Below, in pieces: positions 9,100 through 61,009 of a stretch of DNA of 64,000 nucleotides (position 1 is the stretch's first letter; each line of letters begins with the position of its first letter). Origin of the DNA: an uncultured bacterium. Lineage in GTDB: Bacteria > DRYD01. The notes below the pieces were generated by a model. It did no database searches, was not told where the DNA came from, and saw only the letters and a list, made by a program, of their open reading frames with translations. The position numbers and the translations under genes were made by a program. Location of the stretch: the NCBI GenBank assembly GCA_937139605.1, contig CAKZQG010000043.1, positions 6,692 to 70,691 on the forward strand. The letters are read 5' to 3'.

Positions 9100-9129
9100 T
9101 TGCCAAGTAATTTTTGCTATTGATATAAT
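9100..9129 (+). promoter_or_regulatory. Sigma70-type promoter candidate
   Basis: TTGCCA (9100-9105), 18-nt spacer, TATAAT (9124-9129), directly upstream of the GC-rich element. Confidence 0.5.
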
Positions 9130-9131
9130 TA

Positions 9132-9214
9132 GCCTAATCCCGCCTGCAGACCATAGGGATAACGTGGCGGAATATAAATAGGTCTGCCAAGAGTGTATAT
9201 TATTATACACTTTT
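9132..9214 (+). ncRNA. Candidate structured non-coding RNA (unidentified sRNA or riboswitch)
   Basis: GC-rich island in an AT-rich intergenic region with complementary pairs CCGCC(9140-44)/GGCGG(9166-70) and GCAGACC(9146-52)/GGTCTGC(9181-87), lying between a promoter and a hairpin. Confidence 0.5.
9189..9214 (+). terminator. Hairpin, probable intrinsic terminator
   Basis: AAGAGTGTATA-TTAT-TATACACTTTT, 11-bp stem with one G-U pair; short U tract. Confidence 0.5.
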
Positions 9215-35198: not shown

Positions 35199-35280
35199 AT
35201 TATAATAATTTTTTTTAAAAAGTCAAGTATTTAGTGGGGGGGGGGAATTGTAAAATGTTTGTTAAATTTATTAAATTATT
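35199..35280 (-). promoter_or_regulatory. Promoter of pilus operon 1 with C10 tract (copy A of duplicated promoter)
   Basis: On the minus strand: TTAACA-aacat-TTTACA (35265-35249), C10 (35245-35236), TTGACT (35226-35221), 16 nt, TATAAT (35204-35199). Near-identical to 60929-61009. Confidence 0.85.
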
Positions 35281-35323: not shown

Positions 35324-35722
35324 TTAAAAATAAATAATTAACAAAGAATTAGCAACTGTTAAATCCCTTTCATGTGAAATACTTACTTTAACTATAAAAT
35401 CTTTAACATCCTTACTAAAAAAATTTGATAATTTAACTAAAATATAATCTTTATTAACAAAATCTACAGAATTATTTAAAATCGAGATAGAATTAAAATT
35501 AATCTTAAAAGATAAGGCTTTAATGATAGCTTCTTTAGCAGCAAACCTACCCGCTAAAAACTCTACCCTTCTTTTATAATTAAATATCTTACTATATCTT
35601 TCAATTTCAAAAATACTTAAAACCCTTTTAATAAATCTAAAATTATAAATATTTTTTGATATTCTTTTATTATAAACAATATCTATCCCTGTATTAATAA
35701 AGAAGTGATCATTAAATAACAT
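35324..35722 (-). CDS. acpS: Holo-ACP synthase
   Basis: GIDIV, FLAGRFAAKEAIIKA, VSISHERD. Confidence 0.93.
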   Translation of the reverse strand: MLFNDHFFINTGIDIVYNKRISKNIYNFRFIKRVLSIFEIERYSKIFNYKRRVEFLAGRFAAKEAIIKALSFKINFNSISILNNSVDFVNKDYILVKLSNFFSKDVKDFIVKVSISHERDLTVANSLLIIYF

Positions 35723-35728
35723 TAATTA

Positions 35729-37354
35729 TTATTTATTTTCATCAACCCAAGTTTTTTTAAGGATTTCAGCGATTTCATTAGGATTAGATTTAGCAACCTG
35801 CTCTATTTCAGTAACTAATGTTTTAAATTCCACATTTTCTTGAGTAGCTTCAGATTTATTTCCCAACTTATCAGTAGTTAAATCCACAACAGTATTAGAA
35901 GTGACTTCTTCTTTTTGAGAGTAATTAGGAGCTATATTAATAGCCATTCTATCATAACTTAGTTTATTTTGCTTAAATAAGAAAACCCCCAATACTCCCA
36001 AAGCCCCTATAGCTGCTACAGATGCTAAAAATATAACTAAAGATTGTATAGGGAACGAATTAGATTTAACAGGAACAGCTGGAGGAGCTACTACTACAGG
36101 ATTAGAAACTTGATTAGTACTATTAGCAAAGAACGGTAAATTAACTACAGCTATACTGTCCCCTCTTTCCTCTTTTAATCCAATGGCATTTTTAATATAT
36201 TGTTGTACTTGAGCTTTAGTAGAATCAGATACATTATTTAAAGCCACTGCTACAGTTATTCTCTTTATAGAAGACCCGGGGTTTTTAACTACTTCAGTAA
36301 CTACTTGATCCACTTTTTGATTAACAATAGTTTGTTGTTGAATTTCACTAGCATTTTCTTTATTTTTATCTAAAGCTCCACCTTCATATTGTTTTGTTTT
36401 TTTAGTTTCTTGTTTAGATAAAACCTTAGAATTAGGATCATCAGGAAGCCCATATTGTTCTCGATATATCTTGATCCTATCCCAATCCAGTTCAACATCA
36501 ACATTAACAGTATAATTCCCTACCCCTAATATTTGATCTAATGATTGAGTTAATTTAGAAACATACATATTTTCTACTTTTTGCTTAATTCCAAAGGTAT
36601 CTTCCACAGGGTTAACTGCATTAGGGTTTAATATCCTTCCATTAACTACTAAAGATATATTATTAGAATCTAAACCTTCTACAGAATTAGCAACAGTTTG
36701 AATAATAGCACTCGCTTCTTCATTAGATAAGGATTTTGCGGGAAAAGTATTTAAAATAATAGACGCCTTAACAGGTTCCTTAGTTTCAGATAAGGGATCG
36801 TTCTTAGGAATAGCTAAGGAAACATTAACATTACTAATTTTATCTGGATAAAACTCCTTTATTTTAGTAGATAATGCATATTCTGTAGATTGTTTTATAT
36901 AGTTTTCCCAAGCTTCCTTAGTGGTACCTGGCGGAGGAGCTTTTAACTCAGGAGCAACATTAGGTTTTATAAACCCTTGCTTTACTACATCAGTATAAAC
37001 CCTATTATGATACTTAGGATGAATATAAACTTGCCCTAAAGCATCATCTATCCTATATTCTTTTATACCATTATTTTCTAAGTAATTTTTAACGTTAGCT
37101 AACTGAGCTTTATCCAATTTACCCCCAGGATAAAGCGGAATATACTCATTAGATTTAGAATACAAAAATATAGTAATACCAATAGCAATAATTAAGATAA
37201 TAACAACAGCAATAATAGCTTTTTGAGTATTATTGAGATTTTTTAAAGTTTCAAATAATTGATTAGGTGAAGCTGTAGGAGAAGCCGCTCCTGCTTGAGT
37301 TAATCTAGTATTAGTAGGTCGCGTTGGTCTAGTAGAACCAGGTCTAACTGTCAC
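35729..37354 (-). CDS. fliF: FliF-like (flagellar MS-ring / SctJ family) basal-body ring protein, orphan
   Basis: N-terminal TM then EYIPLY..LD...NV..YLE..GI; VNVSLAIP, SIILN, IIQTVANSVEGLDSNNISLV; LGVGNYTVNVDVELDWD; IKRITVAVALN; AIGLKEERGDSIAVVNLPF; C-terminal TM; ends NPNEIAEILKKTW. Confidence 0.8.
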   Translation of the reverse strand: MTVRPGSTRPTRPTNTRLTQAGAASPTASPNQLFETLKNLNNTQKAIIAVVIILIIAIGITIFLYSKSNEYIPLYPGGKLDKAQLANVKNYLENNGIKEYRIDDALGQVYIHPKYHNRVYTDVVKQGFIKPNVAPELKAPPPGTTKEAWENYIKQSTEYALSTKIKEFYPDKISNVNVSLAIPKNDPLSETKEPVKASIILNTFPAKSLSNEEASAIIQTVANSVEGLDSNNISLVVNGRILNPNAVNPVEDTFGIKQKVENMYVSKLTQSLDQILGVGNYTVNVDVELDWDRIKIYREQYGLPDDPNSKVLSKQETKKTKQYEGGALDKNKENASEIQQQTIVNQKVDQVVTEVVKNPGSSIKRITVAVALNNVSDSTKAQVQQYIKNAIGLKEERGDSIAVVNLPFFANSTNQVSNPVVVAPPAVPVKSNSFPIQSLVIFLASVAAIGALGVLGVFLFKQNKLSYDRMAINIAPNYSQKEEVTSNTVVDLTTDKLGNKSEATQENVEFKTLVTEIEQVAKSNPNEIAEILKKTWVDENK

Positions 37355-37435
37355 AAACTATCCCCCCTTTATATCTTTAATCCTATTATATATTTTAAAT
37401 AAAAATTAAAAAATCCCCTATAAAATATTAAAAAA

Positions 37436-37452
37436 TTAACATCTTTTTTACA
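37436..37452. promoter_or_regulatory. TTAACA-N5-TTTACA box upstream of the FliF-like gene
   Basis: Exact TTAACA-tcttt-TTTACA in the intergenic region. Confidence 0.6.
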
Positions 37453-37489: not shown

Positions 37490-38686
37490 TTATTCTTGAA
37501 CAACAGCCAAATCAGTTCTTATTTTATTTTCATCAAAAACATCCGATAACCTAAAATTAAAATAATTAGAATATTTATCTAATTGATTTAGTATATATTC
37601 TTTAGCAAAAGAATCTATATTTTCTTTAATAACAACATCCAAATTATTAATTTCATTTATTAATACTGCTTTAATTCCTTTATTTTCAAAATAATCTTCT
37701 AAAACTTTTAAAGATTTATTAGTAGATACCAAAATAATAGCATAAGGCTTATAAGATGAATAATAAATATCTAAAAAGAAAACATTATGGATTTTAAAAT
37801 CTTCGTTAAGGAAAGATATAACAATCGGCTTTGATAATTCATTATATATTAAGTTTTTACAAACTTCGACTAAATCTAAATACAATTGCTCTCCCATAGT
37901 GTCTCTTAATTTTTTATAAACATATTCAGCAAAAACCATATTATCAGAAAGAATATAATTAGAAACTTCAGTTAAAGTTAAAATTTCTTCCATTCTTTCA
38001 TCTTTTATACTTTTTCCACAATGAAAACACTTAATCCCAACACTTTGATTTAAGATATCTAAATTAGCGGCTTGTATAATTTGCCTACCAGTTTCTTTAC
38101 ATATAAAAACATACTCGTTTGATAAAAAATTCTTACTTAATAGTTCATTTAAATCTTCTTGATTAACATTTAAAACTTTTATTAAATCGCTTCTAAATAA
38201 AGAAGTCCCAACTTCTTTTATCCTCTTTAAAAGCAAATAACTATTAGTATCTAAAATAGAAATATATTTAATTATATCATCATTTATGTTTAATTCAGTA
38301 ACTGGATTAAATAATTCAACTTCAGTTTTCAAAACATTAAATTCAAATTCAATGTTTTTATTAGTACAAAATTTTTCAAAAACCTTTTTATAAGCTTCAA
38401 AAATCTTTAATTCCTCAAAATCATTATATACAAATAGTAAATAAATTTTATTAGATTTAGAAAAATCTATTAAAAAAGCTGTTTTATCTTTAACAAAAAT
38501 TTCTACATCCTGTTCAAAAACTATAGTCTTTAAATCTTTAGGATCTTTTGAAAAAGAAAATAACTTATATAAATTAACTTTAGTAGAATTAATAACGGGA
38601 TTCCCTAACTTAGAGAAATAATTAATAATATCCGATTTATAATTAAATTCTTGATTTAAATTAAAAATTGCTTCTAGATATTTCAT
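37490..38686 (-). CDS. Hypothetical protein with possible zinc-ribbon segment
   Basis: 398-aa ORF abutting aspS; CKETG...CFHCG. Confidence 0.65.
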   Translation of the reverse strand: MKYLEAIFNLNQEFNYKSDIINYFSKLGNPVINSTKVNLYKLFSFSKDPKDLKTIVFEQDVEIFVKDKTAFLIDFSKSNKIYLLFVYNDFEELKIFEAYKKVFEKFCTNKNIEFEFNVLKTEVELFNPVTELNINDDIIKYISILDTNSYLLLKRIKEVGTSLFRSDLIKVLNVNQEDLNELLSKNFLSNEYVFICKETGRQIIQAANLDILNQSVGIKCFHCGKSIKDERMEEILTLTEVSNYILSDNMVFAEYVYKKLRDTMGEQLYLDLVEVCKNLIYNELSKPIVISFLNEDFKIHNVFFLDIYYSSYKPYAIILVSTNKSLKVLEDYFENKGIKAVLINEINNLDVVIKENIDSFAKEYILNQLDKYSNYFNFRLSDVFDENKIRTDLAVVQE

Positions 38687-60928: not shown

Positions 60929-61009
60929 AATAATTTAATAAATTTAACAAACATTTTACAATTCCCCCCCCCACTAAACACTTGACTTTTTAAAAAAAAT
61001 TATTATAAT
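60929..61009 (+). promoter_or_regulatory. Promoter of pilus operon 2 with C9 tract (copy B of duplicated promoter)
   Basis: TTAACA-aacat-TTTACA (60944-60960), C9 (60964-60972), TTGACT (60982-60987), 16 nt, TATAAT (61004-61009). Confidence 0.85.

Follow-up and report, generated by a model that had tools for sequence, protein, structure and literature searches.

Does a lone gene for a flagellar ring protein mark a flagellum, or does it belong to another machine? The question is raised by fliF, which lies on the minus strand (35729..37354) of a 64,000-nucleotide stretch of contig CAKZQG010000043.1 from an uncultured bacterium (assembly GCA_937139605.1). This stretch is called the window below. 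A first-pass annotation, made from the window alone, had noted a FliF-like protein without flagellar or injectisome neighbours and had proposed a dispersed or repurposed type III-like export or cell-contact channel in place of a flagellar motor. We identified the protein as a genuine flagellar FliF, and its partners were found elsewhere in the genome. With a probability of about 0.6, we consider that it forms the membrane/supramembrane (MS) ring of a conserved, non-rotating, filament-less export machine derived from the flagellum.

The fliF gene encodes 541 amino acids (aa) from a GTG start codon. A Shine-Dalgarno sequence, AAGGGGGGA, was read directly 7 nt 5' of the GTG (37361..37369, minus strand, as are all fliF features below), and the non-coding segment 37355-37452 is the leader and promoter region. 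The first-pass annotation had described a full-length protein with two transmembrane (TM) helices and ring-building motifs (RBMs); both Pfam domains and two hydropathy peaks bore this out. The YscJ_FliF domain (PF01514; RBM1/RBM2, residues 67-236, 36647..37156) scored 81.6 bits (E 8e-23; gathering score 24.4). The YscJ_FliF_C domain (PF08345; RBM3/collar, residues 272-408, 36131..36541) scored 90.7 bits (E 1.6e-25; gathering score 23.8). Two hydrophobic segments flank this periplasmic ring region. TM helix 1 covers about residues 46-66 (37157..37219; Kyte-Doolittle peak 3.35, residues 40-69), and TM helix 2 covers about residues 437-459 (35978..36046; peak 2.58, residues 433-462). By alignment with E. 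coli FliF, a C-terminal cytoplasmic segment (...VAKSNPNEIAEILKKTWVDENK; 35732..35842) was predicted to bind FliG.

The NCBIfam FliF model TIGR00206 aligned with the protein end to end (residues 32-540 with model positions 11-554 of 555). Its score of 119.3 bits was below the equivalog cut-off of 129.75, indicating a divergent member. The model of the injectisome ring protein SctJ, TIGR02544, gave only a local match of 23.7 bits (cut-off 161.95). When PDB chains were searched with the FliF sequence, the informative matches were all flagellar M-ring FliF chains (best E 1e-17); at E up to 1 there was no SctJ-family chain, and the one other match was due to chance (E 0.74). PF01514 and PF08345 were the only Pfam matches at E up to 0.01, so that the SpoIIIAG/AH families gave none. 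The C-terminus (...NPNEIAEILKKTW...) aligned with that part of E. coli FliF that binds FliG, and P525, A529, and W536 were invariant in all 11 aligned FliF sequences. Because the Pfam and NCBIfam models, the FliF chains in PDB, and the conserved FliG-binding C-terminus agreed, the protein was identified as a divergent FliF, neither SctJ nor SpoIIIAG-like. Of the families suggested for comparison, SctJ is already separated from FliF by the HMM and PDB scores.

The nearest FliF proteins outside the genus were 51-54% identical and labelled Candidatus Calescibacterium. The next nearest were ordinary FliF proteins with 23-27% identity. The source was assigned to the hot-spring candidate phylum Calescibacterota (Calescamantes, EM19); its genome has 1.88 Mb in 45 contigs, is 88.5% complete, and contains about 24% GC. 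Like FliF of Salmonella and E. coli, the protein has an N-terminal tail, TM1, RBM1-RBM2-RBM3, TM2, and a C-terminal FliG-binding helix with the P...A...W pattern, and FliG and a flagellar-type export gate are encoded in the same genome. Unlike them, it has a Pro/Thr/Arg-rich N-tail specific to the phylum, its gene lies outside any fliE-fliF-fliG operon, and the system to which it belongs has no filament or stator genes. Its identity to E. coli FliF is only about 24%, and its collar is shorter, with deletions at alignment columns ~357-404 and 450-463.

The unusual P/T/R-rich tail pointed out in the first-pass annotation is real. The tail MTVRPGSTRPTRPTNTR is translated and conserved, and residues 1-21 (MTVRPGSTRPTRPTNTRLTQ; 37292..37354) form the cytoplasmic N-terminus. 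In the alignment, MTVRPGxTRPTRPTxxTRxTQ was kept across FliF proteins with only 52% overall identity. The tail codons varied synonymously between relatives, and the start lay at the same position in both genera, with GTG in one of them and ATG in the second. Explanations of the tail by a mis-called start or by an RNA element were rejected because the start codon was kept, the codon changes were synonymous, and Rfam gave no match. Compared with same-genus relatives, fliF had a ratio of non-synonymous to synonymous substitution rates (dN/dS) of 0.07-0.09, which indicated strong purifying selection.

To find the partners of FliF, the source genome was searched with six-frame family searches, E. 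coli phmmer queries, and Pfam. The lack of fliE, fliG, fliH, fliI, and export-gate genes held within the 64 kb. It did not hold for the genome, as had been implied, since all of them were found on other contigs and were of flagellar type. The partners were spread over eight contigs. FliM-FliN-FliO-FliP-FliQ were encoded together on C4, FlhB-FlhA on C8, and FliI-FliJ on C45. FlgB-FliE-FlgC were on C11, where FlgF-FlgG and a FlgJ-like rod-binding protein occupied a separate place. FliR (C12), FliG (C28, 62660-63679), and FliH (C37) each stood alone. C44 carried the genes of a lytic transglycosylase (SLT), FliK, a coiled-coil protein, and a 269-aa FlgE/F/G-family protein.

Model scores placed the export gate and the ATPase with the flagellar, not the injectisome, type. 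FlhA scored 748 bits with the flagellar model vs 553 with SctV, FliP 252 vs 195 with SctR, and FlhB 354 vs 339 with SctU. FliI was above the cut-off of the FliI clade 2 model. FlhB keeps an NPVH cleavage-type motif, and FlgG, FlhA, FliI, and FliP matched the E. coli proteins at E 1e-44 to 1e-146. Of the parts that the first-pass annotation had listed for a genome-wide search, FliG/M/N, FlhA/B, FliPQR, and FliI were found; MotAB, FlgK, and FliC were not. The rest of the genome held base, export, and rod parts only, and no complete, ordinary flagellar set. The proposal of a dispersed system other than an ordinary motor is thus partly supported: the genes are scattered, and filament and stator genes were not found. 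The orphan status of fliF did not stand, as its partners lie on eight contigs.

The scattering of flagellar genes is general in the phylum. A fliF without a flagellar neighbour was also found in the sister genus and in the second family, and fliG stood alone in both genera, including on two closed-looking 1.87-Mb contigs. In the source genome, a pilin-like gene adjoins fliH, and a gene for a PilB-like ATPase is found near fliG. Next to fliG, C28:61146-62600 encodes a 484-aa predicted lipoprotein with a long poly-Gly/Ser linker after the signal anchor and a HEFVH (HExxH) metalloprotease-like motif; it stands beside fliG in the source genus only. The coiled-coil gene of C44 (4054-4665, between fliK and the flgE-like gene) belongs to a family with C28:21808-22635 and C39:10483-11376. 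The three proteins share the N-terminus ...QLEGFKLA..S(I/L)N.RMNSI(E/D).R..., whereas the number of their heptad repeats (NKRIDET...) varies. They are the source of the spurious FliD_C matches described below.

We then asked which flagellar parts are missing across the phylum. The set consisted of 11 species genomes from three genera and two families. All are metagenome-assembled or single-amplified genomes (MAGs or SAGs), 71-90% complete. FliF was present in 11 of 11. No protein over the cut-off was found in any of the 11 for flagellin (Flagellin_N, PF00669), MotA (MotA_ExbB, PF01618), FlgI, or FlgD. With no Flagellin_N protein, there is no FlgL. The Flg_bbr_C model detected four small proteins (at most ~280 aa) per genome in the eight more complete genomes, namely FlgC, FlgF, FlgG, and a FlgE-like protein of ~270 aa. 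Neither FlgK nor a full-size hook protein was among its matches; with only these four small proteins, there is no FlgK. For FliD_C, only matches of 13-23 bits were obtained in the phylum genomes. They fell in repetitive coiled-coil proteins and were rejected, leaving no credible FliD. The single 17-bit flagellin match, in one genome (G010), was rejected for lying in an E/K-rich coiled-coil open reading frame (ORF).

The raw source genome was also searched, unfiltered, by phmmer and tblastn with E. coli proteins. Nothing was found at E < 0.1 for MotA/B, FliC, FlgK/L, FliD, FliS, FlgD/H/I, CheW, or Tar. CheA gave only borderline local matches (phmmer E 0.004, tblastn E 0.02), one of them to a 348-aa ORF that is likely a histidine kinase. 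No FliA-type sigma factor was found in this genome. A candidate on C7 was rejected, as it scored 183 bits as a SigB/F/G type vs 99 bits as FliA. At this level of search, the absences of MotB, FlgH, FliS, and the chemotaxis proteins cover the source genome only.

The control genomes of E. coli, B. subtilis, Caulobacter, and Thermotoga were picked up where expected. Because the controls were found and chance matches down to 13 bits were reported, the sensitivity was adequate. Under the assumption of independent gaps at 71-90% completeness, the chance that one gene was missed in all 11 genomes is about 1e-9. All matched frames were open in the 11 genomes. As judged from these searches, the flagellar set is incomplete in the source genome and in all 11 phylum genomes. 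It follows the pattern of a filament-less flagellar type III secretion system (T3SS), in which the export apparatus, rings, and rod are kept; here flagellin and stator genes were not found.

FliG, the protein on which the stator would act, was compared at the residues K264, R281, D288, D289, and R297 (E. coli numbering), which we take to be the stator contacts of Lloyd and Blair 1997. In 10 of 10 Calescibacterota orthologues examined, R281 was replaced by T, V, or I, D288 by K, and R297 by T or S. K264 and D289 (as E or D) were kept. The Gly-Pro after the torque helix was also lost in all ten. The charges were kept in a non-Calescibacterota FliG and in the T. maritima and A. aeolicus chains. 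The loss of three of five stator-contact charges suggests a lost motor function. In the source genome, FliM aligned with its model only from position 42, and no CheY-binding peptide (LSQxEIDxLL-like motif) was found in its N-terminus. In all Calescibacterota FliG proteins, FliG_M and FliG_C are also separated by a low-complexity insert that is rich in S/T/N/Q and varies in length; E. coli FliG does not have it.

From this gene content, we infer a machine that would assemble at the envelope, would not rotate, and probably exports proteins rather than swims. The system would be a variant of known reduced flagellar T3SSs, here phylum-wide. In such a machine, FliF rings would house the FliPQR-FlhBA gate, and the FliF C-terminus would recruit FliG and the FliM/N ring. 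FliG, FliM, and FliN, with FliHIJ, would act as a sorting platform and not as a rotor. The gate would export FliE together with the rod proteins and a short FlgE-like segment at the distal end, whose length would be checked by FliK and FlhB through the NPVH site. The rod would cross the peptidoglycan through a gap made by the SLT enzyme. After the substrate switch, other proteins would be exported into or across the envelope.

A further possibility, which we hold only tentatively, is that Calescibacterota have their own stable class of nanomachine, a non-rotating basal body that predates the split of the families and has its own substrates, with the invariant FliF N-tail MTVRPGxTRPTRPT as an adaptor motif specific to the lineage. 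Such a class might consist of the MS ring, a remodelled FliG/FliM/FliN ring, the flagellar gate, the rod, and a short FlgE-like tip whose length is measured by FliK. As candidate export substrates, one could name, speculatively, the coiled-coil repeat proteins of the NKRIDET type.

Several points weigh against the export machine, and most of them speak for its first rival, an ordinary motile flagellum whose genes are scattered and whose filament, junction, cap, hook-cap, and stator genes were missed in gaps or are too divergent. All 11 genomes are MAGs or SAGs with 71-90% completeness. FliF, FliG, and FliM all scored under the NCBIfam equivalog cut-offs; therefore, peripheral parts could be too divergent to recognise. 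The retained FliG_C domain, which is full, FliK, and the FlhB switch with its NPVH site would be equally expected of a complete flagellum. Colman et al. 2016 (PMC4791363) inferred that Calescamantes are probably motile by flagella, and in their Supplementary Table 4 the Calescamantes-OS bin has entries for motA and motB with adjacent gene IDs.

We nevertheless consider an ordinary flagellum unlikely. Six independent families were absent from 11 of 11 genomes, whereas FliF and the four small axial proteins were present in nearly all. Because FlgG, FlhA, FliI, and FliP matched their E. coli counterparts so strongly, a flagellin or MotA of ordinary divergence should be visible, and the searches were sensitive enough to list chance matches of 13-20 bits. 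The FliG stator-contact charges were lost in all orthologues. The table of Colman et al. 2016 (PMC4791363) itself gives fliC, fliD, flgK, flgL, and flgE as absent. The motA/motB IDs are almost the highest cited for the bin and may lie on short, less securely binned contigs. We suspect that these genes were mis-binned because a MotA-family protein was found in 0 of 7 sister-genus genomes.

A basal body kept for a purpose other than secretion is also improbable, and it ranks just behind the ordinary flagellum. It could serve as a conduit for cell contact or nanotubes in streamer biofilms, which is the cell-contact channel of the first-pass annotation, or as an envelope anchor or signalling platform with the abundant type IV pili. 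A preprint by Kaplan et al. cites a link between the flagellar T3SS core and the formation of nanotubes, and the organisms inhabit dense filamentous mats. The window places fliF near a type IV minor-pilin/FG-GAP operon, a DNA box described below is common to fliF and the pilin operons, and fliH and fliG have the pilus-like neighbours mentioned above. However, gene proximity is weak evidence here, since every flagellar gene lies dispersed between housekeeping genes, and the 31 copies of the box precede many genes with no relation to one another. Nothing separates the scaffold idea from plain export.

The machine is hardly likely to be a surviving pre-motility, secretion-only stage of flagellar evolution in place of a reduction. 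It is also very improbable that the genes are decaying remains of a flagellum that was lost and that they have no function today. Many late genes are gone and the remaining ones are dispersed, as a relic would have it, but fliF has the low dN/dS given above, no stop was found in any matched frame of the 11 genomes, and the motifs in both tails of FliF are conserved. Two families with FliF proteins of only ~50% identity or less have also kept the same set of components. Finally, an injectisome ring of the SctJ type, or a sporulation channel ring like SpoIIIAG/AH, shares the PF01514 fold family and the weak local 23.7-bit SctJ match with our protein, but is effectively refuted by a score far below the cut-off of 162, the end-to-end FliF alignment, the RBM3/PF08345 region, second TM helix, and FliG-binding tail that SctJ is without, the lack of any SctJ-family PDB chain at E up to 1, and the presence of a flagellar-type gate and ATPase with FliE, FlgB/C/F/G, and FliG.

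The export machine has known counterparts. Buchnera aphidicola carries filament-less flagellar basal bodies (PMC8109811; also Maezawa 2006, as cited in PMC3459982). It has kept the export apparatus, rings, and rod, is missing flagellin and motility genes, and is thought to use the structure as a protein exporter (PMC8109811). Buchnera is, however, an obligate endosymbiont with an eroding 0.6-Mb genome, whereas the organisms here are free-living hot-spring heterotrophs, and the pattern covers 11 of 11 phylum genomes. Buchnera keeps hook and L/P-ring genes. Calescibacterota are also without FlgD and FlgI, and FlgH was not found in the source genome. Their FliG has not been deleted, and its stator contacts are remodelled, not merely unused.

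Lysobacter enzymogenes OH11 is, like Calescibacterota, free-living, and it has no functional fliC (PMC7688988). Its remaining flagellar T3SS genes are expressed and needed to secrete non-flagellar, antifungal proteins (PMC7688988). It is a direct precedent for the proposed export function. The loss in Lysobacter is recent, is confined to one genus, and leaves FlgD secreted, whereas that in Calescibacterota is ancient and wider (no FlgD, FlgK/L, FliD, or MotA). Abby and Rocha remarked on exapted flagellar T3SSs (PMC3459982). Non-flagellar T3SSs, or injectisomes, including the intermediate form of Myxococcales, are likewise derived from the flagellum, have shed motility elements, and use the SctJ ring fold (PMC3459982). 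In contrast to them, the present system keeps FliG, FliE, FlgB/C/F/G, and FliK, and the scores of its gate and ATPase are flagellar. A lipoprotein resembling SctJ was not detected. The Calescibacterota system looks like an independent reduction outside the injectisome lineage.

Flagellar genes of uncultured lineages are routinely read as "motile", as was done for Calescibacterota (PMC4791363). Here a whole deep-branching phylum of free-living thermophiles has kept, under strong selection, the base of the flagellum and its export engine, and is without parts for filament, stator, or chemotaxis. If the export machine is real, it would be a flagellar T3SS of ancient origin that is naturally without a motor and occurs outside symbionts. 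It would bear on how injectisome-like secretion machines arise from flagella, on the role of a non-turning FliG and cytoplasmic ring (C ring), and on the exported cargo. Core flagellar markers are the genes required by the TXSScan flagellum model. The present case warns that such markers alone are a poor basis for inferring motility.

The genes around fliF in the window are arranged as the first-pass annotation had described, between a hypothetical gene and acpS. The acpS gene (holo-acyl carrier protein synthase; 35324..35722, minus strand; PF01648, E 5e-11) lies 6 nt downstream of fliF. No terminator-like site was found between the two, and they are probably co-transcribed. The acpS-fliF adjacency was kept at the same-genus loci L005, L006, and L029 and was not seen in the sister genus. 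Upstream of fliF, a conserved hypothetical gene (37490..38686, minus strand) encodes a protein of 398 aa and abuts aspS. The aspS-398aa-fliF order was kept in two genera. It is the only conserved order around fliF, and it is a conserved housekeeping block.

The 398-aa protein had no match to a Pfam or NCBIfam family. Its AlphaFold 2 model had a pLDDT of 77.5, and the best fold in PDB was 1xmx (V. cholerae VC1899; E 6e-3, TM-score 0.34). It was rejected as a flagellar partner, as it had no family match, only a weak likeness to VC1899, and no resemblance to any flagellar protein. An invariant CxxC motif (CFHCGK) was observed in it. With E. coli flagellar queries, no other flagellar gene was detected on the fliF contig. 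Further neighbours encode the aspartyl-tRNA synthetase (AspRS), a HIT protein, a LolA-like protein, a DUF4912 protein, and glycogen synthase, and the type IV minor-pilin/FG-GAP operon lies beyond acpS.

A 17-bp box, TTAACA-N5-TTTACA, is located 82 bp upstream of fliF (37436..37452, plus strand). The first-pass annotation had given fliF a regulatory box of its own. The box is real: seven copies were found in the window (17598, 18219, 35249, 35311, 37436, 58582, and 60944) vs 0.05 expected. It is not private to fliF because 31 copies in the genome precede many unrelated genes. This is about 9-fold over-representation by a composition estimate (~3 expected). Thirty of the 31 copies are intergenic, typically 60-120 bp from a start codon and in either orientation. 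The box also precedes flhBA (C8:14587, before flhB), the SLT-fliK-flgE-like operon (C44:6247), and both pilin operons. It was found at 3 of ~10 flagellar leaders, which is above chance by a rough estimate of ~0.2 expected. A fliF-specific or sigma-specific promoter was rejected in view of the copy number, the two orientations, and the unrelated genes. The box is no flagellar marker. It resembles a site for a transcription factor, or else a promoter module shared between genes. The flhB leader shows the same aaggggggatagttt plus start arrangement as the fliF leader.

Other DNA elements were noticed in the window. Poly-C tracts of about 9-10 bases occur at 35236-35245 and ~60960-60970 (C43:41940 and C43:67635 contexts). 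Both tracts directly follow box copies and lie upstream of the two pilin operons. A GC-rich element of ~75 nt, with its own TATAAT box and a terminal hairpin, was found at 9100-9214 (C43:15831) and has five copies in the genome, the others being at C11:53632, C11:55527, C11:12144, and C44:7488. Rfam gave no match when the window copy and the C11:53632 copy were scanned. Three pairs of complementary segments are interleaved in the element (AGCCT, CCGCC, GCAGACC ... AGGCT, GGCGG, GGTCTGC). Two copies of it bracket the flgJ-like gene.

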